DNA of 64,000 nucleotides from Dehalococcoidia bacterium (GCA_965249315.1 OZ252225.1:1574814-1638813), one strand, 5' to 3'; shown: positions 8,601-31,756, numbered from the stretch's first letter. Numbers and translations are program-made. The notes: a model not told the origin generated them from the sequence alone.

Positions 8601-11924
<3,324 letters not shown>

Positions 11925-13358: not shown

Positions 13359-13509
13359 TCCTGCACACGTGCTTCCCGATTGGTGTGGGCATCATTAGAG
13401 CGTACGCCTCTGCCTACGGGCAACGGGCGAATGGCACGTCCGCGCGCTCTGTTGCAGCCCGCCGCGGGCGTGGATACAATGCACCCACGCCCGACGGAGG
13501 TCTTCAAGC

Positions 13510-15540: not shown

Positions 15541-15544
15541 GCTT

Positions 15545-15988
15545 CTACGGCCTGCGGGCCCACACCGTGTGGTAGTGCTCCCCGCAGATGACCGACGCGA
15601 TCTCGGCCCGCTCCAGCTGCTGGAGCTCGCGCAGCGCCTCTCTGCAGTCCTGCACGGCGCTCGGGTGTCCCGTGGTCGCCGTGCGCTCCAGCATCCGCTC
15701 GAACACGCCCAGGCGGACAAGGCTGTGGACGAACCGCGGCCAGAACAGCGCCGTCAGGTCTGCGGGCCGGGGAAGGCCGGACCGGGTCCGGCGCAGGTAG
15801 CGCAGCCGCTCCTCGGGCCCCCGCACGCTGTTCACCACCCGGATGAACGGCGGAATGCTAGCCGTGCAGCGCAGGTCCAGCAGCAGCGTCTTGCCCAGCA
15901 TGGGGAAATAGACGGTCAGGACCTCTGCGTCTTCGATTCTGCGTGCGTACTCCCCGAGGTCTACGGGGAAATCCATGTCCATCGCCAC
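15545..15988 (-). CDS. Hypothetical protein
   Basis: 147-aa ORF with non-repetitive composition, packed between the EF-G paralogue and etfA. No family recognised. Confidence 0.4.
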   Translation of the reverse strand: MAMDMDFPVDLGEYARRIEDAEVLTVYFPMLGKTLLLDLRCTASIPPFIRVVNSVRGPEERLRYLRRTRSGLPRPADLTALFWPRFVHSLVRLGVFERMLERTATTGHPSAVQDCREALRELQQLERAEIASVICGEHYHTVWARRP

Positions 15989-16013
15989 ACCTCCGCACTG
16001 GGCTTCAGGGGCG

Positions 16014-17012
16014 CTATCCGCCCACTAGCTCGCGCACCTTGTTGGTGAAGGCCGGGAGCACTTTCTCCCACTCCCCAACAATGCCGTAGCGGGCCTCCTT
16101 GAAGATGTTGGCGCTCTCGTCCTTGTTGACGGCAACGGTGTTCTTCACGCTGGACATGCCGGCAACGTGCTGGCTGGCGCCGGAGATTGCAAATGTGATG
16201 TACAGCTCCGCGGCAATGCTCTTGCCGGTGAGGCCGATCTGGTAGGAGTGGGACAGCCATCCCGCGTCGCACGCGGCCCGAGAGGCGCCCATTGCGCCGC
16301 CCAGGAGACGGGCCAGCTCCTCCAGCTGCTCGAAGGGCTCCGGCCCGCCCAGCCCGCGGCCCCCGGCCACGACGATGCGGGCGTCCTCCAGCCGCACTCC
16401 CGCAGCCTGTGCCCTCACCTGGTCCACCAGCTTGACCGCGCCGAGCTTGGGGTCCAGTTCCACGGGGAAGGCGACGACCTCGCCCTGGTGCGACGCGTCC
16501 GCCTCGACGGGGTCGAAGGTCTTCGGCCGCACCGTCGCCACTCGCGGCGACGTGGCCACCGTCACGCGGGCCAGGGACGCCCCGCCGTAGACCGGCCGGT
16601 CGCCCGTCAGGACTCCGCTTTCCGGGTCCAGGCTGAGCCGCACGCAGTCCTGCGCCAGCCCCGCTCCCAGGCGGACGGCCAGCCGAGGGCCCACGTCGCG
16701 TCCCAGTAAGGTACGTCCCATCAGGATCACGCTGGGGTCTACCGCCTTGGCCACGCCCTCCAGGACCGCCAGGTGCGCGTCGACGTGGAAGTACTCCTCC
16801 AGGAGCGGGTGCTCGGTCGCGTAGACCTTGTGCGCTCCCAGCGCCGCGGCCTCCTCTGCCAGGCCGCCCACCTGGGCGCCTCCAAGCGCCGCCACCACCT
16901 CGCCTCCCAGGGCCTGGGCCATGGGCGCCGCCGCAGCCACCAACTCGCCCGTTATGGGGGAGAGTTGGCCTCCTGTTATCTCGCCGACGATGAGGACCGA
17001 ATTGCCTGCCAT
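16014..17012 (-). CDS. etfA: Electron transfer flavoprotein alpha subunit
   Basis: The C-terminal FAD-binding region (VVAGGRGLG...ELYITFAISGASQH) is typical of EtfA. Confidence 0.9.
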   Translation of the reverse strand: MAGNSVLIVGEITGGQLSPITGELVAAAAPMAQALGGEVVAALGGAQVGGLAEEAAALGAHKVYATEHPLLEEYFHVDAHLAVLEGVAKAVDPSVILMGRTLLGRDVGPRLAVRLGAGLAQDCVRLSLDPESGVLTGDRPVYGGASLARVTVATSPRVATVRPKTFDPVEADASHQGEVVAFPVELDPKLGAVKLVDQVRAQAAGVRLEDARIVVAGGRGLGGPEPFEQLEELARLLGGAMGASRAACDAGWLSHSYQIGLTGKSIAAELYITFAISGASQHVAGMSSVKNTVAVNKDESANIFKEARYGIVGEWEKVLPAFTNKVRELVGG

Positions 17013-17034
17013 GGTCTCCTCGCAACCTGCGGTG

Positions 17035-17832
17035 TTAGATGAGTTTCGCCTCGTGCAGCTTCAGCGCCAGGTTGATGCCCTTCTCCTCGTCGCTGTCGCC
17101 CTCGATGTACTCGCAGTCCTGCTCCTGGGTCGGGACGTAGAGCTCCTGCGTCTCCACCCTGGGCCGCAGGCCGTCCGAGTCCACGCCCAGGTCCGCTGCC
17201 GACCAGACCGTGGGCTGCTTGCGGGAGGCCGCCATGATGCCCCGAAGGGTCGGGTAGCGGGCCTGTCCCAGCTCATTGCTCACGGTGACCATGGCCGGCA
17301 TTGGGACCTCCACTGTGTCGTGCCCGTCGGTCATGATCCGGTCCACCACCACCGCATCGCCCTGGACCTCCACTCGCTGGGCCACGGTGATACAGGGGAT
17401 GCCCAGGATCTCCGCGAGGGCGAGGGGCACCTGCGCCTGGTCGAAGTCCGAGGCCTGCCGGCCGCAGAGGACCAGGTCGTACTCCCCGATCTTCTGGATC
17501 GCGGCCGCCAGAACGTGCGCGGTCGCAGTCGGGTCCAGGTTCTCGAAGGCCGGGTCCTGGGCCAGCACCAGGTCGTCTGCGCCCATGGACAGCGTCTTCT
17601 TGATGACGTCCATCGCAAACCCTGCTCCCGCGCACAGCACCGTGATCTTGCCCTGCTCCTTCTCCCGGATGCGAAGCGCGGCCTCAACGGCGTTCTCGTC
17701 GAAGCCGTTGACCACGGGCGGAACATTGGGGGGAGGCTCCATCCGCTTCGTCTCGGGGTTGATGCGGAGGGCCGACGCGGGGGTCTCGGGGTCGATGACC
17801 TGCTTGGCCGTCACGATGATGTTCACTGCCAT
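17035..17832 (-). CDS. etfB: Electron transfer flavoprotein beta subunit
   Basis: MAVNIIVTAKQVIDPE...DLVLCGRQASD is an EtfB-type sequence, immediately upstream of etfA. Confidence 0.9.
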   Translation of the reverse strand: MAVNIIVTAKQVIDPETPASALRINPETKRMEPPPNVPPVVNGFDENAVEAALRIREKEQGKITVLCAGAGFAMDVIKKTLSMGADDLVLAQDPAFENLDPTATAHVLAAAIQKIGEYDLVLCGRQASDFDQAQVPLALAEILGIPCITVAQRVEVQGDAVVVDRIMTDGHDTVEVPMPAMVTVSNELGQARYPTLRGIMAASRKQPTVWSAADLGVDSDGLRPRVETQELYVPTQEQDCEYIEGDSDEEKGINLALKLHEAKLI

Positions 17833-17993
17833 GCCAAACTCCTACAAGAGGATGGGAGACGGCCTAATGTGCAATCTATCACAAGCGTCGGAGCGGTGTC
17901 AATCCAGTCTCCGGCACGCGGTCAAGTGTACAACCGCCGAAGAATGCCGTAAGGAAGCGCCTCGGGCCGTAGTGTTCCCGGGGTGCCTCTGCG

Positions 17994-18494
17994 CTACTGT
18001 CTGAGGCGCCACCAGCTACCGCCAGGGTCACGCTGGCAAACGCTGGCCTTGATGTCCTCCGGGAACACGGCGCAGAGGTTGTTGATAATAGTATCGTAGT
18101 AGAACCTTGAACGGTCCTCCACCTGCATCCTCAGCTCTTCTTCTAGGGTGGCGATGTCTTCCCCCATACTCTCGATGTCAGCCCTTAGGCGATTGATGAC
18201 ACCGTTGGTCCTTGTTTCGTAGTCCGCAAGGGCCAGACGCTGCTGCTCCAAGCGCTGAGATAGTTCCTCCTCGTTCCTCCTCGCGCTGAGTAGGCGGGTC
18301 TCAAGTACGTCGATTTGCTCAGGCAAAGGTGCTACCTGGGCTTCCAGTCCGCGGAAGCCGTCCTCTAGGCTGCTGGTGTCCTCCTCGAGACTGCCCAGCT
18401 CAGCGTCCACATACTCCCTGTCGACATTAGAGCCGGAGCACGCTGTGAGAGCTAGAGCTATCGAGAGCATGGCCACTAACAGGAACCATCTCAT
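17994..18494 (-). CDS. Hypothetical coiled-coil lipoprotein
   Basis: MRWFLLVAMLSIALALTAC lipobox at the internal Met; the maximal ORF reaches 18590. The region is more AT-rich than its flanks. Confidence 0.5.
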   Translation of the reverse strand: MRWFLLVAMLSIALALTACSGSNVDREYVDAELGSLEEDTSSLEDGFRGLEAQVAPLPEQIDVLETRLLSARRNEEELSQRLEQQRLALADYETRTNGVINRLRADIESMGEDIATLEEELRMQVEDRSRFYYDTIINNLCAVFPEDIKASVCQRDPGGSWWRLRQ

Positions 18495-18746
18495 GGTTCT
18501 CCTCCTGCACGAAAGTAGCCCCGGGGCAAAGGCGTGCCCCAGGGGTTGAGTTGCCGGGACGGACTGCTTACTTGCTGGCTGCTGCGGCATAGTTCACTCC
18601 CATGAATGCTGCATCTACCATCTTACACCCCGGCGCCCCGTCAACCACACTCTGAACGCCCTGTGGCTCGCGTCTGGGAGGCTACTTGCCCCCCGAGAAC
18701 GCGCTCTGCCGTGTGCTATCCTGGGCACACACCTGCGAGGAGGCGC

Positions 18747-19991
18747 ATGGACACCAACGCGACCGGGTGGCGAGGGTGGCTCCTCCGGGCCCTCCTGCTG
18801 GCCCTCTTCCTCGTCCTCCTCCGCACCGACGACCACCGCCTCTCCCCCGCGACGGACGCCGCCTCCGCGCACCTGTTCGCCGTGGAAGAGTGGATCGTCG
18901 AGAACATGGAGGACAAGTGGCGCCATAAGGCGCGCCGCCTCCTCCCCACGCAGGGCCTCTCCCGGGACGAGCAGATCGAGCGGATGGATGAGCTCTTTGA
19001 GGTCCAGGAGGACGTGCGCTCCATCCGGCGGAGCATCGCCCGTGCGGCCGCGACGGACACCGCCCTCGACCGGGAGACCATGGACAGCTTCGAACGCCGC
19101 CTCTCCTCGCTCCTGGAACGGCGGGAGGCCCTGCGAGACGACGTTGAGGCGCTACTGGAGAGCGAGTTGTCCGCCGTCATCGCAGAGGCCGGCCTCCGGC
19201 GTGGGACGGGCCTGTTCCAGGCTGTCTTCCCGCCCGTCGACTTCCGCCTGGACTCCGCCCCCATGGTCCTGACCGTCTCCCCCCGGGACCGCATCCGGCT
19301 CGCCGGGACGGTCCTCCTGGACGGCGATGGAGAGGTGGCGGACTGGGAGGCGATAGAGGTGGCCTTGGCCCAGGAGCACAGCCTCTCCGCGCTGGTCCTC
19401 CCCATCTCCGGTCTTGCGGCCTACCCCTCCATCGTCTCCGGCACGCGAGACCTGCGGCGCACCCTGGAGATCGTCGCCCACGAGTGGCTCCACCATTACT
19501 GGTTCTTCCACCCCCTGGGCTTCAATTACTTCGCCTCCGCCGAAATGACCACCCTCAACGAGACGGCGGCGGACATCGCCGGTCGGGAGCTGGGAGATCT
19601 GGCCTACCATCGCCTGATGGGGAGGCCCCCGCACGAGCCCATCGTCCCTTCGCGGGCCGACACCGGTGAGAGGGTCTTCGACTTCGGCGACGAAATGCGG
19701 GAGACCCGCCGCACCGTCGACGCCATGCTGTCCCAGGGCCGTGTGACTGAGGCCGAGCAGTACATGGAGGCCCGCCGCCGCGTCTTCGTCTCCAACGGCT
19801 ATGCGATCCGAAAGATCAACCAGGCGTACTTCGCCTTCCACGGCACCTACGCGGAGAGCCCCGCCTCCGTCAGCCCCATCGCCGGCCAGCTCCACGAGTT
19901 GCGCGAACGCACCGCCACCCTCGGCGAGTTCGTCCGCACCGTCGCCCGCTTCAACACCTACGACGCCTTCCTGGCCTACCTGGAAGAGTGA
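18747..19991 (+). CDS. Membrane-anchored putative HExxH metallopeptidase (called gene A in the findings)
   Basis: An N-terminal TM segment (WLLRALLLALFLVLL) and HEWLHHYWF. Its last 125 nt are repeated three more times downstream. Confidence 0.6.
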   Translation: MDTNATGWRGWLLRALLLALFLVLLRTDDHRLSPATDAASAHLFAVEEWIVENMEDKWRHKARRLLPTQGLSRDEQIERMDELFEVQEDVRSIRRSIARAAATDTALDRETMDSFERRLSSLLERREALRDDVEALLESELSAVIAEAGLRRGTGLFQAVFPPVDFRLDSAPMVLTVSPRDRIRLAGTVLLDGDGEVADWEAIEVALAQEHSLSALVLPISGLAAYPSIVSGTRDLRRTLEIVAHEWLHHYWFFHPLGFNYFASAEMTTLNETAADIAGRELGDLAYHRLMGRPPHEPIVPSRADTGERVFDFGDEMRETRRTVDAMLSQGRVTEAEQYMEARRRVFVSNGYAIRKINQAYFAFHGTYAESPASVSPIAGQLHELRERTATLGEFVRTVARFNTYDAFLAYLEE

Positions 19992-20007
19992 GGAAAGAAG
20001 GGAAGCT

Positions 20008-21717
20008 ATGTTCAGTGTGCTAGCGGCTATGGCAACCCTTGCCGCCATTGGCTTGATCTTCGCGCTGGACCCGGGCGGGGTCATCGCCGAAAGCGGCTTC
20101 CCCGACTTCCGGGAGATGGACTGGAAGCAGCTTGTGGCGTGGGGCTTCCGTACGATAGGCGTCGTTGTAGCGCAGCTGCTCATTGTCGTGCTGTGGCTGT
20201 GGACCAAATTCAGGGACCAGCACGGGACCGAAGCGCAGCGGCGCCCTTCGTACCCGGCGGACCCGCCCACCGGTTCACTGCCGGCGGCAGCGGTATCTGC
20301 CCTGCAGGACCACATGATATGGGGCCATACGCTGCTCGCTTCCATCATCGAGATGTGCCAGCGCGGCACACTCAAATTGGAGTGCGTCGGAACGAGGAGT
20401 GGCTTCCTGTACCGGCTTTCTCCGCAGGGCCCCGCACAGCATGACTGGGAGCAAACGATATGCGACAGCCTGCCGTCTCGCCCCACAACGATTGATGAGT
20501 TGGATGAAGCGATAAGCAAGCACAAAGATGCCATCGGCGACCAGATAGGCGACTACCTGCAGCACCGTGGTCTCTTCCATGACAACCCCGTACGTGACAG
20601 GAGGGAGAATCTCGGGAGTGGTGCCGGATGGGCCATTCTGGCCGGGGCCTTGATGGGCGTGGCTGGTGGGCTCTGGATGGCCCTATGGCTGTCCCAGTGG
20701 TGGGCGAACGCCCTGATCGGCGCGTTCATAGGCTTTGTCTATATGCTGATTGCTCCTATGGCGTCGTACGTGGCGCCGACAACGCCGAGGGGGGCTCACG
20801 AGATAGAACAGTGGCTTGGCTGGAAAGAGACCGCGGCCGGGTCCGCTCGTCCCGGCGCCCAGGACGAGGCCGACTCCATGTTGGCCTATGCCGTGGCCCT
20901 GGACGTGGCCCGGCCATGGCTCGACCTCTCCGTCCCGGCCCCGCCGTGGTTCCAGGCATCTTTCCTACGAGGTGCCGAACCGGACGCGGCCTATCACGCC
21001 TTTCTGCACGAATCGGTCTGGGGCCTGGCTGGACGGTCCCAGGACGCGGCGAAAGCGGCGGCAGAGACGGACGAGGCAACAGAGGCCGAACTGCTCGATC
21101 TGGAGTCGGCGGGTACCCGGAAGGCATCTGACCGCGAGATCGCCGACGAGATTGAAGAGATTGATCGTGAACTGGAGGCGCAGGGCAGTCCTCCGGCAGC
21201 CACCCCGAGGTCGGCGCCGATGGAGTATCAGCGGCACAGGCGGGATCGGGCGGTCAAGGAGGAGAAGGGCGGCGGCTGTCTCCCCGGCTGCCTCGTATGG
21301 GTCGTGGGCCTGCTGGGCATAGGGGCCCTTGCCCTGGTCGTCCTGTTCAGCCTCGACGTGCTCTCGCCTCGCGACAAGCCGTGTCCCCTGACCTCTCCCC
21401 CGATTCCGACGCCCGCGCTGATTGCGACAGCCGGTGATCTGTTCCGCAATGAGTGTGTGAGGGTCCGCGGCACGATAGTGTTCCAGGCCGCCGGCGAGCT
21501 GGTGGTGGAGATGGACCGGGGCGAGTACGTGCAGCGCGTGAACGTCAGCGACCCCGCTGAGGTACTCCAAGCAATCCCCCTGGGCCGCGTGGTGACCCTG
21601 GCTGGGTGGCTCAGAGTGGAGGAGGACGGGACATACTCAGTCCACTTCATACCGGACCATGGAGCAGACCGCGAGTGGTGGCGGAACCTCCTGGAGAACC
21701 TCGAAGGGCTGTTCTAG
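20008..21717 (+). CDS. Multi-pass membrane protein, DUF2207-like (cassette 1 cargo)
   Basis: ATG 20008 follows GGAAAGAAGGGAAG. Several TM segments, an acidic linker and a C-terminal soluble domain. Confidence 0.55.
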   Translation: MFSVLAAMATLAAIGLIFALDPGGVIAESGFPDFREMDWKQLVAWGFRTIGVVVAQLLIVVLWLWTKFRDQHGTEAQRRPSYPADPPTGSLPAAAVSALQDHMIWGHTLLASIIEMCQRGTLKLECVGTRSGFLYRLSPQGPAQHDWEQTICDSLPSRPTTIDELDEAISKHKDAIGDQIGDYLQHRGLFHDNPVRDRRENLGSGAGWAILAGALMGVAGGLWMALWLSQWWANALIGAFIGFVYMLIAPMASYVAPTTPRGAHEIEQWLGWKETAAGSARPGAQDEADSMLAYAVALDVARPWLDLSVPAPPWFQASFLRGAEPDAAYHAFLHESVWGLAGRSQDAAKAAAETDEATEAELLDLESAGTRKASDREIADEIEEIDRELEAQGSPPAATPRSAPMEYQRHRRDRAVKEEKGGGCLPGCLVWVVGLLGIGALALVVLFSLDVLSPRDKPCPLTSPPIPTPALIATAGDLFRNECVRVRGTIVFQAAGELVVEMDRGEYVQRVNVSDPAEVLQAIPLGRVVTLAGWLRVEEDGTYSVHFIPDHGADREWWRNLLENLEGLF

Positions 21718-21790
21718 GTGGCGCTCCACCACTGCCACCTCCGCTAGAGCCTGACCGTCAGTCACCGCCGAGGTCCTGCTGGCTCCCTGG

Positions 21791-21833
21791 TCACCACACG
21801 GCCTTGAGTCCGACCACTGCTGCCGTCAGCCCC
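21791..21833 (-). repeat. Scar of a crcB 3' end (last ~11 codons plus stop)
   Basis: Minus strand reads TAAVVGLKAVW*. Compare the intact crcB end ...GLTAVVVGLKVGQALKAVW* at 25949-26010. Confidence 0.7.
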
Positions 21834-21947
21834 ATCGCCGGCCAGCTCCACGACCTGCGACAGCGCACGGCCACCCTCGGCGAGTTCGTCCGCACCGTCG
21901 CCCGCTTTGACACCTACGACGCCTTCCTCGCCTACCTGGAACAGTAA
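21823..21947 (+). repeat. Copy b of the 3' end of gene A (125 nt, frame and stop preserved)
   Basis: Aligns to 19867-19991 with 11 mismatches by eye. It encodes VSPIAGQLHDLRQRTATLGEFVRTVARFDTYDAFLAYLEQ*. Confidence 0.9.
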
Positions 21948-22005
21948 GCCCGCAAGGGCCTGCCCCCAATGTGCTCCGTGGTACACTCAACCGCTCCGCC
22001 GAGCA

Positions 22006-22893
22006 TTGGAGGACCAACCCATAGCTCCTAGTGACGGTTTCTACTGGGCCTTTCTGGCTCTTCTAGGCTGGGGCTCCGCCGATTACCTGGCGCGGTCCGC
22101 GTCCGGTCGATTCGGAAGCGTGAGCGTCACGCTGCTTACCCTCACCATTGGACTGGCGGCGCCCCTTCCTTTTGTGCTCGTGGAAATCTCCCAGGCGTCG
22201 CTGGCAGTGGACTGGTCGGAGTTGGCAGTCTGGGGGCCGGTGACTGGAGGGTTCCTCGGAGTCGCCTACCTCGTCTACTACACTGGCCTGCAGCGGGGCT
22301 CCGTTACGGTGGTGTCCGCTACGGCCTCTGCCTGGCTGGCGGTCACTGTGGTGATTGCGGTTGTCGCCTTTGGAGAGAGCCTCTCGCTGGGCCAGGTGGG
22401 GCTAATGGCCGTCATTCTCCTGGGGATACTCATGCTGTCGGCCGGCCGGGTGACTGGGATGGGTGTGAGAACCGGCCTGGGTTGGGGGCTTGGGGCCATG
22501 CTAACGATCGGTGTCGCCTTGGGGTTGATTGACCAGGTGACTGAAGCGGCTGGCCCCATGTTGGCCGTGCTTGTCGTCCGGGCGGTCTCCATCGTCCCGA
22601 CCTACGCGTTTGTGAGGCTGAAGAGGGTGGACGTGCGGCGTCCTACCGACCTGAGGGGCTGGACGTTGCTCGTAGCCGTGGGTCTTCTCGACGCTGGAGC
22701 CTACGTGGCATACAACCTGGGCGTGGACAGCGCGCCCGTGGCTGTGATAGCTCCCATCGCCGCGGCCCATCCGGTGGCCACAATTGCGCTGGCCGTAGCG
22801 CTGAGTAGGGAGCGGCCCCATGCCCTCCACTGGGCGGGCGCCGCAGCCGCCATCGGGGCGACCGTCGGTCTCAGCATTTTGGTCGGCGCTTGA
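22006..22893 (+). CDS. EamA/DMT-family transporter (cassette 2 cargo)
   Basis: Ten predicted TM helices and a duplicated EamA-like pattern (GWGSADYLAR...). The start is uncertain: TTG 22006 is chosen, and the ORF is open from 21907 inside repeat b. Confidence 0.7.
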   Translation: MEDQPIAPSDGFYWAFLALLGWGSADYLARSASGRFGSVSVTLLTLTIGLAAPLPFVLVEISQASLAVDWSELAVWGPVTGGFLGVAYLVYYTGLQRGSVTVVSATASAWLAVTVVIAVVAFGESLSLGQVGLMAVILLGILMLSAGRVTGMGVRTGLGWGLGAMLTIGVALGLIDQVTEAAGPMLAVLVVRAVSIVPTYAFVRLKRVDVRRPTDLRGWTLLVAVGLLDAGAYVAYNLGVDSAPVAVIAPIAAAHPVATIALAVALSRERPHALHWAGAAAAIGATVGLSILVGA

Positions 22894-22907
22894 GGGGAGC
22901 GCCGGTG

Positions 22908-22991
22908 CGCACCGCCACCCTCGGCGAGTTCATCCGCACCGTCGCCCGCTTCAACACCTACGACGCCTTCCTCGCCTACCTGGAAGAGTGA
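22908..22991 (+). repeat. Copy c of the 3' end of gene A (84 nt)
   Basis: 2 mismatches against 19908-19991. It encodes TATLGEFIRTVARFNTYDAFLAYLEE* and begins 14 nt after the EamA stop. Confidence 0.9.
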
Positions 22992-23015
22992 AGACAGAGG
23001 CAGGCGCTTGCGGCC

Positions 23016-24464
23016 TTAGCTCCGTTGTGGCGGGGGTGGGGGAGTCTCGGAGTAGAGCCAGGCGTCGAAGAGTTCATCGAGCTCCTTGCCCGAGACGTCT
23101 TCCGCCACCTCTATGAAGTCGGCGGTCGACGCGTTGCCTCCTCCATGGCGAGATAGGAACTCGCGGAGAATAGCGAAGAAGTCCTCGTCGCCTACTTCCT
23201 CCCTCAGGGCGTGGACCACCAGGGCGCCCCTGTCATAGACCCAGGCAAATGGGGACTCCGGAAGGGGTTTCCCCGGCGGGCCCATCTCGTCCGTCCACAT
23301 CGCATCCCAAAACCGATCGAACGCATCGCTGTCGTGCCGGTGTTCATACCACAACCATTCCGAGTACGTCGCGAACCCCTCGTTCAGCCACAGGTCTTCC
23401 CACGTCGCGGGCGTCACCAGGTTGCCGAACCAGTGGTGGGCCAGTTCGTGGGCCACGACTATCTCGCCAAACCCACCTGAGAGCATGTTCGCGCCGTACA
23501 CCGGCCTAGTCTGTGTCTCCAGCGCCAGGAACTCCGTGTCAATGACGATTGCGCCGAATGCCTCAAAGGGGTACTCGCCGAAGGTATCGTTGAAGAACTC
23601 CAGCATCTCGAACACGTCGTCCAGGCCGAATACCGCCGACGGGTCCAGCGTCACTTCGATGTAGTCGACAATCGGTAGTCCCTTCGGGCCATCCGTGGTT
23701 CTTCTGTGAAACTGCCCAATCGCCATGCCCACTAGGTAGCTTGCCACCTCGTCACGCACTTCCCACGTGTACGTGCTCTTGTCCCCGTGATCGACGACAT
23801 CGACGAGCTCGCCTATCGCAGCAACCTCGTTGGGGTCCGGGACCGTCACCACGATCGTGTAGGTAGCCTTGTCCGAGGGATGTTCGTTGACCGGATGCCA
23901 GGTCGACGAACCCCACGGTTCGCCCGCCGCGAAGATGCCCGTCTCATACTTCACCCAACCCATCCGGTAGCCGAAGCCCGGAAGGATTTCGGTCAGGGGT
24001 TGCCCCTCGAATGCCACGTCCGCAGTGAAGGATGAACCGCGCGGAATGGCTTCCTGCGGTGTTACCGTCAGCTCGTTGCCATCGCGCGTGTGCGTTGCGG
24101 GCCGATCGGACACACGCGCCTCAATGACGTGCAGCCCGCGCAGATCCAGGTTGAACGCCGAAAGCGCTTGGGTCGCCTTGGCCTCGATACTGGCCTCGCC
24201 GCGAATGAAATTCGCGTCAACGTCGACATCCAGATTGAGTGTGTAGTGTGAGACTTCGTAGCCGCCGTTGCCCAAGCCTGGATACAGCGGGTCGCCCAAG
24301 CCTGCGGACCCCGGCGAGGGCCCCTCCACCGGGCGACAACCCACAAGCAGCAGCATCGCCAGAGCGAGTGTTGCGAGTGGTGGGACTGCTGGAATAACCT
24401 GGGGGCGCTTCACCGGACCTATCTCCATGGCAATCGGCGTTGAACACTCCAAGCGAATGTCCAC
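23016..24464 (-). CDS. M1-family zinc aminopeptidase, probable lipoprotein (cassette 3 cargo)
   Basis: HELAHHWFGNLVT...WLNEGFATY (HExxH-18-E), a GAMEN-like region, and N-terminal LLLVGC. Confidence 0.85.
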   Translation of the reverse strand: MDIRLECSTPIAMEIGPVKRPQVIPAVPPLATLALAMLLLVGCRPVEGPSPGSAGLGDPLYPGLGNGGYEVSHYTLNLDVDVDANFIRGEASIEAKATQALSAFNLDLRGLHVIEARVSDRPATHTRDGNELTVTPQEAIPRGSSFTADVAFEGQPLTEILPGFGYRMGWVKYETGIFAAGEPWGSSTWHPVNEHPSDKATYTIVVTVPDPNEVAAIGELVDVVDHGDKSTYTWEVRDEVASYLVGMAIGQFHRRTTDGPKGLPIVDYIEVTLDPSAVFGLDDVFEMLEFFNDTFGEYPFEAFGAIVIDTEFLALETQTRPVYGANMLSGGFGEIVVAHELAHHWFGNLVTPATWEDLWLNEGFATYSEWLWYEHRHDSDAFDRFWDAMWTDEMGPPGKPLPESPFAWVYDRGALVVHALREEVGDEDFFAILREFLSRHGGGNASTADFIEVAEDVSGKELDELFDAWLYSETPPPPPQRS

Positions 24465-24479
24465 TCCCTCGTCAGGGGC

Positions 24480-24833
24480 CTAGCAGTCGACCAACCCCTT
24501 TGCCCTTAGCTCAGCGTATACTCTCCGGTTGTAGGCGTAGTAGTCCTCCCTGGCCTGCCTCTCTGTCGCCTCATCGGCGTCACCTGGAATCACGTACCCG
24601 TCCCTCGGAGCCTCCAGACCTTCGACCCGCCCGTCAGCATAGATCCTCACGTGTCTTGGGTTGGTCATGCGGTGCTCGGCATAGTAGTCGAGATAGTCCT
24701 CCTCGAACACATACGAGATGGACCATCCAGCTTTGTTTATTCTGCCGGGCCGCCTTAGCGTAGTGGCGTCCAGGGGCAGCTGGATGTTCCAGCTAGCGAA
24801 CGACTCGGCGAAGATTCTATGGATGTTGTCCAT
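24480..24833 (-). CDS. Hypothetical protein (cassette 3 cargo)
   Basis: Start chosen at MDNIHRIF; the maximal ORF reaches 24893. No family recognised. Confidence 0.4.
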   Translation of the reverse strand: MDNIHRIFAESFASWNIQLPLDATTLRRPGRINKAGWSISYVFEEDYLDYYAEHRMTNPRHVRIYADGRVEGLEAPRDGYVIPGDADEATERQAREDYYAYNRRVYAELRAKGLVDC

Positions 24834-24902
24834 CTGCCCCCCTGCTGGCTCGTCGCAGCGCCTCGTCGACTCCCAGCGGAGGGGCCTGCGCATGAGGGCT
24901 CC

Positions 24903-24977
24903 TCACCCCTGCGCCAGCAGCCACCCCAGGAGCGCGTCCACGAACGTGTCGCCGTAGCCGGGCGCATGGCCGCTGCC
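24903..24977 (-). repeat. Copy e of the 3' end of an absent gene B (alpha/beta-hydrolase-like C-terminus)
   Basis: Minus strand encodes GSGHAPGYGDTFVDALLGWLLAQG*. It is homologous to 26466-26539. Confidence 0.8.
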
Positions 24978-25063
24978 AGCGTACGGCCACCCTCGGCGAG
25001 TTCGTCCGCACCGTCGCCCGCTTCAACACTTACGACGCCTTCCTCGCCTACCTGGAACAGTGA
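24978..25063 (+). repeat. Copy d of the 3' end of gene A (~86 nt)
   Basis: Encodes TATLGEFVRTVARFNTYDAFLAYLEQ* and abuts copy e with no spacer. Confidence 0.9.
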
Positions 25064-25099
25064 GGGCGCAGGATCTCACCCGTTGCAGACTCCGAACGA

Positions 25100-25885
25100 C
25101 TATCCCGTCTCCGCGTGGGCCTCCACGGTCACCTCTATTTCGGGCGGTTGAAGAACGACGGCAGATTTCTTCTGCAAAACCTCAAGGTCTATGGCGCGGA
25201 TCTTCTCATCCGCCGCCTCGGCAGCATGGAGGGCATCCTGCTTCGCGTTAGCCTGAGGCACGAAATGGCTGCCAAAAATCACCATTGGGGCGACCTCGCT
25301 CGCTACAGCGACAGTCAGGATAATGCATGCAGCTGGCCGATAGGCTAGCCCAACTGTAGAGTCCTTTGGTGAATCGTGGGGACGAGGTTCGATACTCGGA
25401 CCTGGATGAATGCCGTACTTGCTTAGCAGCTGATATGCGTCCTTTCTCATTCCAGGCTTGATATTCAGCCTCGCCAGCTTGAGTCTCACCTTCGAGGCGC
25501 TGTACCGATTCTTCCTGCCGCCCTCATCCCTTCGCCACTCCTTATAGTCCTCACTGGAACGCGCGAAGAGGTTCAACAGGTTCGCGGTCTCAGCTAACTG
25601 CCTGAACACCCCGAGGGCCTGATCCATGTAACCCCTCTTGAGCAAGAGAAGAGCGGCGGAGGCATTCGCTGAAGATCGACCCAAGAGATGCTGCTCCTCA
25701 TGATCTCCTCCCCTGCAACCCCATCTACATGAGGCGATACCGTCTAGCCACCACAGCAACTCTCCTAGGGCATCAAGGACTCCTCCCATCCCCAATTCCG
25801 AGACCCACGCGTCGAACAACTCTTCGCAGAATTCTTCCCGAATGTGAATGGCTTGCAACTGATAACGCTTCTTTCCAATTTCCAT
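25100..25885 (-). CDS. Hypothetical protein, AT-richer (cassette 4 cargo)
   Basis: 261-aa ORF. The segment AALLLLKRGYMDQALGVFRQLAETANLLNLF resembles the helical cores of DUF5677/AbiV-like proteins, from memory only. Confidence 0.45.
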   Translation of the reverse strand: MEIGKKRYQLQAIHIREEFCEELFDAWVSELGMGGVLDALGELLWWLDGIASCRWGCRGGDHEEQHLLGRSSANASAALLLLKRGYMDQALGVFRQLAETANLLNLFARSSEDYKEWRRDEGGRKNRYSASKVRLKLARLNIKPGMRKDAYQLLSKYGIHPGPSIEPRPHDSPKDSTVGLAYRPAACIILTVAVASEVAPMVIFGSHFVPQANAKQDALHAAEAADEKIRAIDLEVLQKKSAVVLQPPEIEVTVEAHAETG

Positions 25886-25948
25886 ATCAATTGGCTCCAG
25901 GCTAGATATGCTCCTACAGTTGGTACCCTATGGCGAGCGTCCCCCTGG

Positions 25949-26374
25949 CTACCACACGGCCTTGAGTGCCTGCCCGACCTTGAGCCCGACCACCACCGCG
26001 GTCAGCCCAACCGCCACCTGAAGCACCACGTTCGCCGAGCCGGCGAGGTAGGCCTGGTCTCTGAACAACCTGATCGTATCCATGCCGAACGCCGAGAACG
26101 TCGTAAACCCCCCGAGCACGCCTACGAGCAGGAATGCCTGGACCTCGGGGCTCAGCGGCTTATGCGTCTCCGCGAACCCCACAACCAGGCCGATGAGGAA
26201 ACAGCCCGCCGCGTTCACAGCCAGGGTCCCGTAGGGAAACCCCGAGCCGCTCAGCCCCCCATTCAGCCACACCACCACCAGGTAGCGCGCCATCGCCCCG
26301 ACCACACCCCCAGCCCCGACCCAAAGAATCAGCAAGCCTCGTCTATCCCCCCTTCCACAGTGCGCCGCCTCCAA
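25949..26374 (-). CDS. crcB: Fluoride ion channel CrcB/FluC (cassette 4 cargo)
   Basis: GGFTTFSAF motif and four TM helices. The protein is slightly long at the N-terminus, so the true start may be internal. Confidence 0.85.
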   Translation of the reverse strand: MEAAHCGRGDRRGLLILWVGAGGVVGAMARYLVVVWLNGGLSGSGFPYGTLAVNAAGCFLIGLVVGFAETHKPLSPEVQAFLLVGVLGGFTTFSAFGMDTIRLFRDQAYLAGSANVVLQVAVGLTAVVVGLKVGQALKAVW

Positions 26375-26465
26375 CCCAACTCATCGAAGCGCCCGTGGGA
26401 TATCGTCTCCCCAAACTTCGCCATGCACTCACGCTCTGGTCGCAATCATATCACCCGCCCCCCGC

Positions 26466-26539
26466 CACCCCTGCGCCAGCGGCCACCCCAGCAGCGCATC
26501 CACGAACGTATCGTCGTAACCGGGTGCGTGGCCGCTGCC
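26466..26539 (-). repeat. Copy f of the 3' end of absent gene B
   Basis: Minus strand encodes (VVWTGD)GSGHAPGYDDTFVDALLGWPLAQG, and the original stop is lost. Confidence 0.8.
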
Positions 26540-26610
26540 GTCGCCCGTCCAGACTACGCTCGTGCCGGAAGCCGGAGGCCTTCCACAACAACCCCCCTCG
26601 ACCGGCAGGG

Positions 26611-27060
26611 CTAGCGGACTGGGTCAGGTGGCGTCAGATTGTCCGCTTCGGTGACTAGCTCGGTCAGCACGACCAAGTCGAGGTCTTCAAGGCGTCGGAA
26701 CCCGATGCTTGCTGCGCCGAGCTTCACCTTTCCGAGGCGATCGGCGTAGCTGTGGGCGAGGTAGGCATTGTTGACCGCAGCGTTGACGTAGATGCTGTAG
26801 TTCCTCTTCTGCCGAGCGAGGCCGACGAGGAACCACTCGACGGTATCTCCCGTTGAGTTCCTCTGGTCGATGTGGCCGTACCCAATGATGGACTGTTGTG
26901 TGCCGCCCCAGAACACGCCCTCCCAGAGCACCCGTTGGCGGCTAGGCAGCGCACCGTGGATCGCTCTGTCAACCGATGTCAGGGTGTCGCGATGCTCGTC
27001 GGGAAGCGAAGCTAGGTAGGCGTCCGGGGCGGTGTCGACGATTCGCATCGACTGGCTCAT
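26611..27060 (-). CDS. DUF1801 (YdhG-like) domain protein
   Basis: Pattern LPDEHRDTLTSVDRAIHGALP...WGGTQQSIIGYG...YSIYVN is typical of DUF1801. Confidence 0.6.
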   Translation of the reverse strand: MSQSMRIVDTAPDAYLASLPDEHRDTLTSVDRAIHGALPSRQRVLWEGVFWGGTQQSIIGYGHIDQRNSTGDTVEWFLVGLARQKRNYSIYVNAAVNNAYLAHSYADRLGKVKLGAASIGFRRLEDLDLVVLTELVTEADNLTPPDPVR

Positions 27061-27318
27061 GTCCCTGCCTCCGCGTTGTCAGTGCGGTGCTTCTCAGTAG
27101 GGGTGATTGTAGCGCAGGATGCCACCAGATAAGAGCTTGGGCTATCCTGACGGGCATGGCGAGTGTGGAGCCTCGGCCTCTCAAGCCGTCTACTTCGCAG
27201 CCCACGCTTCCCATGGTGGACCCTTCGGCCGCCCGCCCGCAATCGCCACTCACCCGTCACGCTGCAGGCGACGCCCCCTCCCCTCCCCCCTCCTCTCGGC
27301 CATGGCCTTCGTTCTAGC

Positions 27319-27348
27319 TTGGCCCGTTTCGTCTCAGTCCGTTACAAT
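27319..27348 (+). promoter_or_regulatory. Candidate promoter for the DUF4258/DUF2283 pair
   Basis: TTGGCC (27319-27324), an 18-nt spacer, then TACAAT (27343-27348). Confidence 0.35.
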
Positions 27349-27432
27349 GGTTTCCCGAAATGAACGTGGACTCTCACTGCCACTGTCCCTGGGCCATACT
27401 CTCGATGCGATCAAGGATACTCGACAGACGTC

Positions 27433-27693
27433 ATGGGATCGTTGATTCTCGAGTACACTAGGCACGCCGTCCACGTCATGGAGGTACGCGTGATCTCCAA
27501 AGAGTGGGTTGAACTGGCGGTGACCGAACCGGCTCTCCGCACTCCGGACCCTAGTGATCCAGAGGTGGAGCGGTTCTTCCGCCGCATCCCGGAACGCGGA
27601 GGCCGCGTGCTGCGTGTCGCCGTCAACACTCGTGTTACACCTTGGCGCGTGGTGAGCGTATTCTTTGATAGAAGTATGAGAGGAGAGCCGTGA
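27433..27693 (+). CDS. DUF4258-family putative toxin
   Basis: YTRHAVHVMEVRVISKEWVE...VVSVFF is the DUF4258 pattern. It overlaps the next gene (GTGA). Confidence 0.65.
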   Translation: MGSLILEYTRHAVHVMEVRVISKEWVELAVTEPALRTPDPSDPEVERFFRRIPERGGRVLRVAVNTRVTPWRVVSVFFDRSMRGEP

Positions 27694-27890
27694 AGCTGAA
27701 CGTCGACAAGGAAGCTGATGCCCTCTACCTGCGCCTCGACGACTCCCCTATAGTCGAGTCCGAGGAGGTCTCGCCGGGCGTGGTGCTTGACTACAACGAG
27801 TCGAACGAGGTGGTGGGAGTGGAGATGCTGCACCTGTCAAAGCGCTCTTCTACCCTCAATCTCTCTGTGCTGCAGTTTGAGACGGCATGA
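27690..27890 (+). CDS. DUF2283-family putative antitoxin
   Basis: DKEADALYLRL...ESEEVSPGVVLDYNESNEVVGVEMLHLSKR is the canonical DUF2283 pattern. Confidence 0.7.
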   Translation: MKLNVDKEADALYLRLDDSPIVESEEVSPGVVLDYNESNEVVGVEMLHLSKRSSTLNLSVLQFETA

Positions 27891-27956: not shown

Positions 27957-29006
27957 TCACGCCCCTTCCCCTCCCCCCTCCTCCCCGATGCGCGCCGCCT
28001 CCAGCGCCGGGTCCTCCACCCCCAGCGCGGTCATGGCCCGGTGGCGGCTGTGCAGCCCGCCCTGCACCAGCAGCAGCTCCTCCCGGACCAGGCGTCCCCG
28101 GTCCTGCGGCAGGATCGGGCCCCAGGCGACGTTCAGCCGCACGGGGCGGTACCGCTCCCCCGTGTACTTCTCCAGCAGGCGAAGGGCCATGTCGGCGCGG
28201 CGCTTGTAGGTCGTGCTGCGGATCAGCCGCTTGCGACGCACCCGCTGGAGGAGGGGGTGCAACTCCATCTCCAGCGCCACGCCCGAGAGGTTCCGCGCAT
28301 TGTCGCCAAAGGCCGTCCGCGGCGCTTCCGACAGGTCGTGCAGCGCCCGGTAGAGCAGGTCGATGAACTCCGTGTGCAGCCGCACGCCGCCCCCGTGGAG
28401 CAGGTCCAGCAGGTAGGCCCGCGCCCGCTCCGGCAGCTCCCAGACGGCCCCCGGCTGTACCGCGATGTCCCGCGCCTCCTCCACCCCCTCCAGCACGGCG
28501 ATGGGGTTGCCGGACAGCTCCAGGATCGTCGAGAGCTGCGAGAAGGCCCGGTTCAGCTCCCGCTGCGGCTCCACGAGCGGAGGAATGTCGGAGAGCCCCC
28601 AGAACTTCTTCGGCTCCCGAAGGTTCGGGAAGAGGACGAAGGGTATCGCCCCGTAGGGGTTCGCCCGCTCCTCCAGCAGCAGGTCGTCCAGCCACAGGCT
28701 GAAGGTCTGCTCCGTCCACACCTCCACCACGACGACCTCCGCCCCCTGGGGCGTCACGCCGTAGAGCGCTTCCGCCTCCTCCGACGTCAGTCGGTAGCGG
28801 CTGGCCACCCGCCACGTCCGAGAGAAGTCGTCGCCCACCCACCACGCGAACATCCCCTGCACGTCCGGCGCCGTGATGCGCACCGTCTCCGACTCCGGGT
28901 CCCAGGTGACCTTGTAGCAGCCGTCTCCGAGGATGGAGGCGTCCACCTCCGTCTCGTAGTCCATCTGCGCCAGCTGCTGGGGCACGGTGAGCCGTGTCGT
29001 GACCAT
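27957..29006 (-). CDS. Phage portal protein (short form)
   Basis: SPP1-Gp6-like portal core (FPNLREPKKFWGLSDI...LSGNPIAVLEGV...GVALEMELHPLL). It has its own AAGGGAGG RBS 6 nt before the ATG. Confidence 0.7.
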   Translation of the reverse strand: MVTTRLTVPQQLAQMDYETEVDASILGDGCYKVTWDPESETVRITAPDVQGMFAWWVGDDFSRTWRVASRYRLTSEEAEALYGVTPQGAEVVVVEVWTEQTFSLWLDDLLLEERANPYGAIPFVLFPNLREPKKFWGLSDIPPLVEPQRELNRAFSQLSTILELSGNPIAVLEGVEEARDIAVQPGAVWELPERARAYLLDLLHGGGVRLHTEFIDLLYRALHDLSEAPRTAFGDNARNLSGVALEMELHPLLQRVRRKRLIRSTTYKRRADMALRLLEKYTGERYRPVRLNVAWGPILPQDRGRLVREELLLVQGGLHSRHRAMTALGVEDPALEAARIGEEGGGEGA

Positions 29007-29035
29007 TGCATTCCTCCCTTGTTCCTAGTAGCCGC

Positions 29036-29067
29036 CCGCTCACCCTGAGCCTGTCGAAGGGTCGTCG
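29036..29067 (+). repeat. 32-bp perfect direct repeat, copy 1 (CCGCTCACCCTGAGCCTGTCGAAGGGTCGTCG)
   Basis: Identical to 31656-31687. Confidence 0.9.
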
Positions 29068-29081
29068 CCCCTCCCCCCAGC

Positions 29082-29429
29082 TTACGCGGCTGACCGCCCG
29101 CCGTTGGCCCGCTGCAGGGCCCGGAAGACCGTTCGCTTGCTCACCCCGAACCGGTCCGCCAGCTGCGTGACCGACAGCCCCTCTCGACTGCGAAGCCGGC
29201 AGATCGAGCGGTCACGCTGCGCCCGACGCTCGCGGTGGTACCACCCCGGCTCGTCGTGCTTGCACTGCGGCAGCGGGCATCGAAGGCAGGACGGCGCGAC
29301 GTTGCAGCCGTCGTCCCTGTAGGTGTAGTGCTCCGGGAGGGTGTCCAGGAGCAGCGGCCGCGGCCTGCGCCGGGGTGCGCCCAGTCCTCCGTGTCGAGCG
29401 TGCTCCGTTGCCACCGATATGAGTTCCAT
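29082..29429 (-). CDS. Small Cys-rich protein with a C-terminal helix-turn-helix
   Basis: C-terminal GLSVTQLADRFGVSKRTVFRAL is a resolvase/sigma-like HTH, and a CxxC cluster lies upstream. Confidence 0.55.
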   Translation of the reverse strand: MELISVATEHARHGGLGAPRRRPRPLLLDTLPEHYTYRDDGCNVAPSCLRCPLPQCKHDEPGWYHRERRAQRDRSICRLRSREGLSVTQLADRFGVSKRTVFRALQRANGGRSAA

Positions 29430-29489
29430 CTTCCCCCCTTGGACCGAGACCTTTTGCGAAAGGGCCTTCGCGCACAGAGAGCGCTTGCC

Positions 29490-30896
29490 CTAGGCCCGCA
29501 CGAGCAACGGATCGGTGCTCGCCTCCGCCCGGCCCCGGGCGATACGGGGCTGGCGCTCTCCCGCCTTCACCAGGAGTGCGGCGCTCACGAGGAAGTCGTC
29601 GTGTCCCTGGGAAGGCGAAACGAAGAAGTCCACCGTCTGATTGGGCCGGTAGCGCGCCTGGGCCATCTCCGCCTCCCGCCAGAACTCCTGGCACTCCGGC
29701 GAGCCGTCCGACGCGTACATCTGCAGTCGCCCCGTGTTGACCGCCGCCAGCAGCTCGAACGCCAGGCGCGACTTGCTGGCCTGGGTGAAGACGAAGGGCT
29801 CCACAGCACCCCCCAGGGCCTTGGTGAGGAGGCTCGCCACGCCGGCCCCCACGCCCGTCGCGTCCACCACGACGCGGCGGCAGCGCCACACCCGACGCAG
29901 CAGGTCCGCCAGTCGGGGCGCCAGCGCGTGGTGCGGCTCGCCCCGCCACCAGTACTGCTCCACGATTCGCAGGCGCGGTTCCGGCGCCAGGCCGGTGCTG
30001 TTGACGAAGTCCACCGCGCCGATGGTGAGCACCGTCGCGTCGCGCCTCTCCGCGCGCCCGTCGCCCTCGGGCCGGTCGCCCCACGGTTCGCCGGCCAGGT
30101 CCAGGCCTGCCACGTACGTCCGACCGGCCACGGGCGCCGGCAGACGGGCGTGGTCCCCCTGGAGCTGGGCGCGCTGGCCGGCGGTGAACAGGCCGTCGCC
30201 TCCCGCCACGGGCAGCAGCCGGTACTGCGTGCGGAACAGCGGGTGCTCCTCCCCCAGCCGCGCCCGCTCCGACTCCACGTACAGGCGGTACAGCGGGTTG
30301 TGCGCGGCCACCGTCTCCCAGTCGAAGCGGAAGTGCCGCCGCACCCCGTCTCGCGCCTCGAGCTCCCGGCCCTCCTCCGCCATCGCCTCCAGCAGCGTGT
30401 GACGGTCCCACGGCGTGCCGTACAGGACGGTCGTCGCGTTCGTCGACGCCCCCATGGGCCGGAACGCCTTGGCGAACCGGTCCGACTCCACGTCCTGCGC
30501 CTCGTCCACCTCCAGGAGGACGCTCGCCGTCGCCCCCACCACGTTCGCCGAGGGCTCCGCGCTGAGAAACAGCTGCTGGGCCCGCCCCAGCCGGATGCCG
30601 TTCGCCTGCTCCGGCGACCACACTCCGCCGTAGCCCGCGTCGTCCAATCGCTGCTTGAGGCGCTGCATGCTGATCACCGCCTGCGGGAGGAACGTCGGCG
30701 CGGCCTTCACCAGGCTTCCGCCGGAGGCCATGTGCAGCGTCAGCAGCAGCAGCTCCAGCTGCGCCGACAGCTCCTTCTTGCCTCCCTGCCGGGCCATCTC
30801 CACAGTGAACACGCGGCCGCGACGCCGGAGCACGCTCTCCATCACGGCGCGCCCCACCTCGGTCTGGTACGGTCGCAGGTGTTGAGTGATGGGCAT
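29490..30896 (-). CDS. Phage terminase large subunit
   Basis: Walker A-like ARQGGKKE, Walker B LLEVDEAQD, and a C-terminal RNase-H-like nuclease (VVVDATGVGAGV). ATG 30896 follows GGAGGAGG. Confidence 0.8.
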   Translation of the reverse strand: MPITQHLRPYQTEVGRAVMESVLRRRGRVFTVEMARQGGKKELSAQLELLLLTLHMASGGSLVKAAPTFLPQAVISMQRLKQRLDDAGYGGVWSPEQANGIRLGRAQQLFLSAEPSANVVGATASVLLEVDEAQDVESDRFAKAFRPMGASTNATTVLYGTPWDRHTLLEAMAEEGRELEARDGVRRHFRFDWETVAAHNPLYRLYVESERARLGEEHPLFRTQYRLLPVAGGDGLFTAGQRAQLQGDHARLPAPVAGRTYVAGLDLAGEPWGDRPEGDGRAERRDATVLTIGAVDFVNSTGLAPEPRLRIVEQYWWRGEPHHALAPRLADLLRRVWRCRRVVVDATGVGAGVASLLTKALGGAVEPFVFTQASKSRLAFELLAAVNTGRLQMYASDGSPECQEFWREAEMAQARYRPNQTVDFFVSPSQGHDDFLVSAALLVKAGERQPRIARGRAEASTDPLLVRA

Positions 30897-30919
30897 GGGA
30901 CACCTCCTCCTTCTGTTGT

Positions 30920-31159
30920 TCAGAGCACCAGGCGCAAGACCACCTGGACGAGCGCCGCGCCGACGACGAGGAAGATGAGGCCGTTCACTCGCTCCTTCAG
31001 TTCCCCCACCGCCGACTCCAGCGAGCACATGCGCTGGTCCAGCAGCGCCTCGAACGTGCTCCCCGGCCCCAGGTCGACCTCCCCTGGCAGCGCGGCCGTT
31101 AGGGGTTCCGCGCTCTTCCGAAACCGCCGCAGCGTCTGGTGAAGCCGCTCAGACGCCAT
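30920..31159 (-). CDS. Small phage-module protein with a C-terminal TM helix
   Basis: 79-aa ORF ending LIFLVVGAALVQVVLRLVL, translationally coupled to its neighbours. Confidence 0.4.
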   Translation of the reverse strand: MASERLHQTLRRFRKSAEPLTAALPGEVDLGPGSTFEALLDQRMCSLESAVGELKERVNGLIFLVVGAALVQVVLRLVL

Positions 31160-31655: not shown

Positions 31656-31687
31656 CCGCTCACCCTGAGCCTGTCGAAGGGTCGTCG
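31656..31687 (+). repeat. 32-bp perfect direct repeat, copy 2
   Basis: Identical to 29036-29067. Confidence 0.9.
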
Positions 31688-31756
31688 TTCCGGCGCAGGC
31701 AGAGGAACCTCGACGCCTCCCGCCTCCGACTGCCGCTGCAGCCCAACGCCGCCCCG

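Follow-up and report, generated by a model that had tools for sequence, protein, structure and literature searches.

A probable integrase-independent accretion hotspot between two convergent core genes of an uncultured Dehalococcoidia bacterium

A sequential-displacement model was published for the effector-immunity arrays of the T6SS (type VI secretion system) of Vibrio cholerae (Kirchberger et al. 2017, PMC5361080). As far as these are cited in that article, the same model covers the C-terminal displacement of Rhs proteins and the orphan cdiA-CT/cdiI modules of contact-dependent inhibition (CDI). Here, a comparable locus is described in a stretch of 64,000 nucleotides from a Dehalococcoidia bacterium (GCA_965249315.1 OZ252225.1:1574814-1638813), which is called the window. 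In this locus (the slot), an intact gene for an HExxH membrane protein (gene A) is followed by truncated copies of its own 3' end (tail scars) with cargo between them, and by two minus-strand tail scars of an esterase gene (gene B). The region is probably an integrase-independent accretion hotspot between the convergent core genes A and B, at which recombination with an illegitimate second join adds material.

The T6SS, Rhs and CDI arrays resemble the slot in several respects. An intact gene is followed by same-orientation orphan 3' fragments, each with its own downstream cargo; single-module intermediates are found in other strains; and no recombinase is present. Proposed for them, as here, is homology-facilitated illegitimate recombination that has its anchor in the conserved upstream part of the gene. 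However, the displaced ends of the slot are conserved sequences and not variable toxin tips, and its cargo is ordinary (a transporter, a peptidase, CrcB and toxin-antitoxin genes) and has no cognate immunity genes. In addition, the scars of the slot come from both flanks of a convergent gene pair, and they lie in an uncultured Dehalococcoidia.

Homology-facilitated illegitimate recombination, or 'homologous recombination at the border', was reported by de Vries & Wackernagel (2002), Prudhomme et al. (2002) and Meier & Wackernagel (2003), as cited in PMC5361080. The slot would share with it the combination of one homologous anchor and an illegitimate join, with microhomology of 1-9 nt and variable joins over nine scars. 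In those transformation experiments, the joins reportedly lay at GC-rich microhomologies of 3-10 nt. Laboratory events are mostly insertion plus deletion, whereas the joins of the slot lie inside the anchor gene and would have added material and a scar, repeatedly and in nature.

Site-specific accretion gives a further comparison. In the ssrA islands of Dehalococcoides (McMurdie et al. 2011, PMC3146451), the repeat is an exact one of 20 bp, a conserved motif of 15 bp adjoins every copy, and 16 islands contain DsiB/DsiA serine recombinases. Like the slot, the accretions of ssrA islands, cis-mobilisable elements (CIMEs) and integrative and conjugative elements (ICEs) consist of tandem islands downstream of a single-copy gene with direct repeats of its 3' end, and some islands lack an integration module. 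ICESt1 and the CIMEs at fda are bounded by attL/attR-type repeats of the gene 3' end. In contrast to the ssrA islands, the slot has no exact repeat, no adjacent motif and no recombinase. Integrons likewise hold short cargo units between 80-125-nt repeats that are at least 90% identical, and gain new units beside a fixed site; however, the slot has no intI (in the window) and no attC-like fold, its genes have mixed orientations, and what is repeated is the true coding end of a conserved gene. Unlike a transposon or insertion sequence (IS), the slot has no transposase, terminal inverted repeats or short fixed target-site duplication. For toxin/immunity arrays the idea has been published before (PMC5361080), and the slot is a clear natural example of a known process with ordinary genes, not a new class of system.

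Tail scars, their allelic origin and their junctions

Gene A (18747..19991, plus strand) is the left anchor of the slot. It is conserved and single-copy in Dehalococcoidia, with at least 579 homologues in Dehalococcoidia genomes (tblastn-confirmed). No family match was found in Pfam or NCBIfam, and an exact look-up of the window's gene A returned no record. Tail positions are given as nucleotides before the stop of the gene (e.g., -125), and contigs of relatives are denoted by L numbers.

A preliminary description of this DNA, made from the sequence alone, had reported repeated ends of both genes, and self-BLAST of the window recovered all of them. The tail of the intact gene A (A1, 19867..19991, plus strand) was 100% identical to that of L081. 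Segment 19867-19989 of A1 matched 21823-21945 of A2, a 125-nt scar (21823..21947, plus strand), with 91.9% identity over 123 nt (E=4e-43). A3, a scar of 83-84 nt (22908..22991, plus strand), was matched by A1 over 91 nt (22908-22998, ident 95.6%, E=2e-35), and A4, a scar of 86-87 nt (24977..25063, plus strand), over 86 nt (24980-25065, ident 94.2%, E=6e-31). The gene B tail scars on the minus strand, B1 (75-78 nt, 24903..24977) and B2 (~88 nt, 26466..26553), matched each other over 74 nt (24904-24977 and 26466-26539, ident 89.2%, E=3e-19). A degenerate 38-nt pattern of the gene A tail peptide gave exactly 4 matches in the window against 0 expected (100 shuffles).

The number of differences from A1 was 11/125 in A2 and 2/83 in A3, in agreement with the mismatch counts given before, and 7/87 in A4 (3 in the last 80 nt). 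The reading frame and stop codon are kept in every copy of gene A, as was also claimed, and only 1-4 residues per copy, conservative ones, are changed relative to A1. The A2 peptide is one residue away from that of L083, and A3 together with the M1 peptidase gene behind it is collinear with the gene A tail of L082.

The differences of the scars from A1 were compared with eight other functional gene A tails in an allele-state test (binomial P). All 11 differences of A2 were states found in the functional gene A of other lineages (P=1.5e-11), as were both differences of A3 (P=1e-2) and 5/7 of A4 (P=3e-4). A2 and A3 had no private change, and the changes in the scars were mostly at third positions with intact frames. 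Since nearly all scar states match functional alleles of other lineages, the scars are displaced ends of once-functional alleles and not local duplicates; the view that the copies are imported allelic versions is borne out by this test. Between -94 and -2, A1 and A2 are each a pure allele, and at -125 to -95 they share 30 identical bases. Any crossover therefore lies upstream of -94, a position that is natural for a long upstream anchor and that may also fall within the identical stretch.

The preliminary description had placed two copies of the gene B tail on the minus strand and the gene body nowhere in the window. Both copies are present; B2, however, runs on to ~26553 and has lost the stop codon, and its body is replaced by DUF1801 and toxin-antitoxin-like genes. 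With the lost stop and a Leu-to-Pro change, B2 is the older scar. Full-length gene B was found in L082, L085, L087 and L088; it encodes a polyhydroxybutyrate-depolymerase-like esterase of 361-379 aa, the C-terminus of which matches B1 and B2. In the window, the full-length L085 homologue matched the two tails only (tblastn), and the gene B body is indeed absent. B1 forms a head-to-head fusion with A4. The B1|A4 junction (24960-24995) is a quasi-palindrome, TGGCCGCTG..CAGCGTACGGCCA; it results from a CAGCG..CGGCCA motif that both genes have on their coding strands near the break points.

The A tails are truncated at -125, -83 and -87 in the window, at -77 in L086 and at -36 in L084, and the B tails at -78 and -88 in the window, at -87 in L088 and at ~-9 in L082. 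A scar of CrcB (see below) is joined to A2 at a microhomology of 8-9 nt, GTCAGCCC, which is common to CrcB and gene A; the B1|A4 and EamA|A3 junctions have microhomologies of 1-4 nt. The left partners of the A tails (the CrcB tail, the EamA end plus 14 nt, the B tail and the end of a SET gene) are mutually unrelated, and no shared flank motif was found beside the tail copies. From their variable truncation points and short microhomology, the junctions look illegitimate.

No recombinase or transposase domain was found in any major open reading frame (ORF) of the 64-kb window or, by precomputed Pfam annotation of the slots only, in nine close relatives, the only rve and DDE transposase genes of which lie outside the slot. 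No attC-like fold was detected in the tails, with DNA folding z of -0.2 (A3), +1.1 (A2), and -0.15 and +0.1 (B1); the context of A1 gave z = -2.5, but it had no structure in common with the other tails. No tRNA and no known RNA was found in the region, and the only tRNA of the window is at 53381. Inverted repeats bounding the cargo blocks were not found, and the duplicated segments are 36-125 nt long and variable. The Pfam scans, folding and tRNA search therefore uphold the previous statement that the region has no integrase, transposase, attC-like site or tRNA. A sub-threshold TPP match inside one cargo gene (ORF261) was taken as chance, and an apparent tRNA T-arm beside the L084 scar had no support from ARAGORN or Rfam.

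Cargo blocks and slot alleles in close relatives

Nine contigs of close relatives (L081-L089), with gene A 79-93% identical, were found by protein search. All nine share the upstream genes present on the contig, namely carbamoyl-phosphate synthase, elongation factor G (EF-G), electron transfer flavoprotein (ETF) alpha and beta, and then gene A. On the right, the flank of portal, helix-turn-helix (HTH) protein and large terminase is common to L084-L088. The ancestral layout is read from these sequences as gene A > variable cargo < gene B, beside a conserved terminase/portal remnant. The relatives with full-length gene B have this convergent arrangement, in line with the slot proposed in the preliminary description.

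With < marking genes that face gene A, and A' and B' marking tail scars, the slot reads gene A-610aa-<gene B in L085; gene A-<M1pep-DUF998-<small-<CrcB-VWA-DUF192-<205aa-<gene B in L082; gene A-DUF2207-SET-NUDIX-149aa-<gene B in L087; gene A-DUF2207-DUF998-<small-B'|<HicB<HicA-<gene B in L088; gene A-DUF2207-SET-A'<LRR in L086; and gene A-DUF2207-SET-permease-A'-<gene B pseudogene in L084. The relatives' own scars differ in length: B' of L088, beside HicB-HicA-gene B, has 85 nt, A' of L086 (SET|A'<LRR) has 72 nt, and A' of L084 has 36 nt. The relatives carry zero or one A-tail copy. Alignment of the orthologous locus, as had been proposed, showed differing cargo directly after a complete gene A. 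This cargo is DUF2207 in seven relatives (by Pfam in L081, L084, L086, L087 and L088; by nucleotide collinearity or position in L083 and L089) and the M1 peptidase in L082.

In the window, cargo 1 is a DUF2207_C membrane protein (20008..21717, plus strand), the usual neighbour of gene A in relatives. It is followed by a CrcB 3'-end scar of ~37 nt (21785..21822, minus strand; ..AVVGLKAVW-stop), which holds the last ~10 codons and the stop of a CrcB allele and is fused to A2. Cargo 2 is an EamA transporter block (21977..22907, plus strand; gene ~22009-22893). Cargo 3 consists of an M1 aminopeptidase (23016..24464, minus strand; 91% to L082 11270-12682) and a small ORF (24480..24893, minus strand; true start probably ~24833). 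Cargo 4 consists of ORF261, a low-GC ORF of 261 aa (25100..25885, minus strand; weak Pfam match to DUF5677), and a CrcB fluoride channel (25949..26374, minus strand; 93% to the L082 CrcB), which is natively downstream of gene B. Pfam confirmed DUF2207_C, EamA, Peptidase_M1 and CrcB, so the four cassettes of unrelated cargo in the preliminary description were recovered. However, the M1 peptidase, the small ORF and CrcB, i.e., cargo 3 and part of cargo 4, share one slot in L082, and the four cassettes are therefore not fully independent.

Comparison with the relatives showed that window 8746-21868 was 98% identical to L081, an independent assembly that also contains the CrcB-scar|A2 junction. 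The L081 contig ends 46 nt into A2, and a break there is expected at a repeat. A3 and the M1 peptidase were 91% identical to L082 11161-12682, where the gene A tail leads directly into the peptidase. Identity to L082 was 88-93% for the small ORF, CrcB and both B tails, with the core genome at ~90%. CrcB directly adjoins the small ORF in L082, and the native position of the small ORF in L088 is 9 nt downstream of the gene B stop. On these comparisons, the window appears to be a tandem concatenation of slot alleles that are seen singly in relatives.

GC and GC at third codon positions (GC3) between ~20 kb and 27.9 kb were below those of the flanks. ORF261 had a GC of 0.54-0.59 (whole window 0.66) and looks like the sole clearly foreign cargo by composition. 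Most cargo is about as diverged from the relatives as the core genome and is therefore long resident in the slot of this lineage, not foreign. The earlier claim of serial import of allelic versions of the locus is supported by the allelic scars, with the caveat that most of the cargo is lineage-resident.

In relatives, EamA genes with 88% identity to the one in the window occupy two other loci, and the homology stops 14 nt past the stop codon, exactly at the A3 start. EamA was also sought as a donor allele adjoining gene A; no such allele was found. The EamA gene with ~30-60 nt upstream and 6-14 nt downstream occurs in three differing genomic contexts in close relatives (L090, L091 and L092), which suggests that it has been relocated repeatedly as a single-gene block.

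A 1.06-kb segment (24873-25940) splits the small-ORF/CrcB adjacency of the L082 type and is flanked by CCCCC(C)TG(C)TGGCT. Its interpretation as a precise insertion with an 11-14-nt target duplication is less likely. The flanking motifs are better read as what two former slot alleles probably kept of the sequence downstream of CrcB.

Among distant relatives, 80 GTDB Dehalococcoidia loci with gene A at 50% identity or less had no duplicated A tails, no B tail and no conserved synteny on the right. A scan of JGI metagenomes with the degenerate A-tail pattern gave 0 matches. The phenomenon is visible only among close relatives.

Proposed mechanism and alternative explanations

In the proposed mechanism, DNA of a diverged relative would pair with the conserved flanking gene by RecA-type homologous recombination, which provides the anchor. 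The far, non-homologous end of the incoming DNA would then be joined illegitimately inside the resident copy of the anchor gene, a few dozen to ~125 nt before the stop. Because this join lies inside the resident copy of the same gene, the complete donor gene and its cargo would be added instead of exchanged, and the truncated 3' end of the resident gene, with the resident cargo, would be displaced one step downstream. Repeats of this event at the gene A end of the slot, with mirror-image ones at the gene B end, would stack cargo blocks between tail scars. Mirror events at the gene B side could account for B'|HicBA-gene B in L088 and for the loss of the gene B body in the window.

The scars and slot alleles are observed, whereas the mechanism of an anchor plus an illegitimate join, the order of the events and the route by which the DNA entered are inferred. 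The preliminary description had proposed serial import with homology on one side and an illegitimate join on the other, and every testable element of it held. The same topology would fit equally with a circularised A-tail-cargo-(B-tail) fragment integrated by a single crossover in the tail (Campbell-type), or with unequal crossing-over between alleles, and these routes cannot be distinguished.

Several points weigh against integrase-independent accretion. The single alleles that it predicts (gene A-EamA, gene A-ORF261-CrcB-gene B and DUF2207-<CrcB) were not found among the nine relatives. Out of the eight scars of at least 30 nt, six have their start 77-88 nt ahead of the stop, and they stem from two unrelated genes (rough P ~2e-4 under uniform joins over 0-130 nt), and random illegitimate joins do not predict this clustering. 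Homology-facilitated illegitimate recombination was rare in experiments (PMC5361080). The linkage of all units in one genome could also be a strain chimera threaded through the 84-125-nt repeats. The clustering is weakened as an objection by a detection bias against short scars and by recombinational loss of long repeats; the ~9-nt B remnant of L082 was detected by alignment only, and short scars escape BLAST. Promoter or terminator signals, as a reason for the ~80-nt length, were not found in the tails.

Tandem accretion of small integrative or cis-mobilisable elements is unlikely. A recombinase encoded elsewhere (phage, ICE or other island) would target the 3' end of gene A, and another that of gene B, so that the tails would be attL/attR-type repeats. 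Same-orientation 3'-end repeats bounding cargo are the classic signature of such elements, the starts of A3, A4 and the L086 A' lie within ~10 nt of each other, and a phage remnant adjoins the slot; tandem ssrA islands, some without integrases, are known in the same class (PMC3146451). However, the boundaries of both the A and B tails vary as given above, and the sequences to the left of the repeats are unrelated and share no conserved arm motif. The junctions lie on ad hoc microhomologies, and neither the window nor the relatives' slots contained a recombinase. The window also holds only four copies of the A tail, with no further copy (far attR) beyond the phage remnant. Moreover, the blocks are 1-2 kb of ordinary genes, and the scars derive from two different genes plus a third (CrcB).

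Each junction is real DNA, because its microhomology is far below any assembly k-mer and the window contains no N. This bears on an assembly chimera, in which strains with different slot alleles were threaded via the shared tail and no single genome has all four tails. Such a chimera is improbable, although the repeats match or exceed common k-mers in length and the short-read contig L081 breaks inside A2. Each cargo-to-truncated-tail junction, with microhomology of 9 nt or less, needs real molecules, and the CrcB|A2 junction was reproduced in L081. Analogous scars were present in the contigs L084, L086 and L088 (19 kb-2.1 Mb), and record names suggest long-read assembly.

It is quite improbable that the slot was duplicated in tandem in situ, or received an insertion with a long target duplication, and that the copies then diverged by mutation while their cargo was turned over. 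A tandem duplication would give exactly the topology of the q|p junctions (B-tail|A-tail and CrcB-tail|A-tail). Neutral decay, however, would have given random changes, whereas A2 and A3 have no private ones and the states of the scars segregate in the functional alleles of other lineages. Downstream, the copies are followed by unrelated sequences, which means that no target-site duplication is present.

The ~77-88-nt length might instead point to a dedicated, length-measuring cassette exchange that uses the last ~80-90 nt of the flanking core genes as arms. Its outcome would be integron-like, without attC or an adjacent integrase, and it could run in trans, e.g., via the terminase/portal module (packaging-linked lateral transfer); we give this idea little credence. 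Silent gene-conversion cassettes that would supply protein A with different C-termini, on the pattern of pilS/pilE-type antigenic variation, are extremely unlikely: the copies are in frame and intact with few differing residues, but they are nearly identical among themselves and with alleles that are fixed in other lineages (1-4 conservative changes vs A1), relatives have at most one copy, the length of which varies, and the gene B and CrcB tails behave alike.

Surroundings of the slot and significance

To the right of B2, filler sequence (26611..27890) contains the DUF1801 gene (26611-27060, minus strand) and a DUF4258/DUF2283 pair (27433-27890, plus strand), the DUF2283 of which is common to L084 and L088. 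The conserved right flank of portal, HTH protein and large terminase follows (27957..31028, minus strand). The terminase/HTH protein/portal module (27957-31499) has no capsid or tail genes downstream of the portal; it was 87-92% identical (nt) in L084-L086 and present by annotation in L087 and L088. In the distant Dehalococcoidia L001, L026, L030 and L035, a portal 69-76% identical at the protein level lies near gene A, which is ~42-49% identical there. The portal of the window has 349 aa and that of relatives 435 aa. The module may be a remnant that was domesticated or that is competent for packaging.

The HTH, large terminase and 116-aa genes are bracketed by a perfect 32-nt direct repeat (29036-29067 and 31656-31687), a copy of which is conserved in L084 (100%) and L086 (87.5%). 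A 105-nt structured intergenic repeat (31754-31858 and 39164-39265; ident 84%) has internal GC hairpins and copies 7.3 kb apart. It is not a gene tail, occurs also in L084 and L086, and brackets a stretch with a second low-GC3 island. Genes for an IrrE/M78-like protein (34992-36164) and for a PF14350 'Beta protein' (36663-37847) lie in a second island of atypical composition (34992-39300), where inverted repeats pair 38705-38818 with 43804-43914 and 39320-39345 with 43742-43767. At the left end of the window (168-2251), a GmrSD-type restriction endonuclease is split over two ORFs, GmrSD_C (168-890) and GmrSD_N (914-2251), with GC3 of ~0.65 against ~0.9 in host genes. In L088, the segment from EF-G to ETF immediately upstream of gene A lies between two 99.9% identical, inverted DDE_Tnp_1_4 IS copies (31-1928 and 6946-8843).

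Integrase-independent accretion between genes A and B would extend the sequential-displacement model beyond toxin/immunity loci. Most chromosomal gene-gain hotspots have no mobile-element genes, and how genes are gained there, and not only swapped, is rarely visible. The junction scars of the slot would record additive events one by one, with their order and the alleles from which each piece came, for housekeeping-type cargo and in an uncultured host lineage without genetics. Truncated, same-orientation 3' ends of flanking core genes that carry foreign allelic states may serve as a simple, searchable signature to gauge how common integrase-free accretion is in metagenome-assembled genomes.

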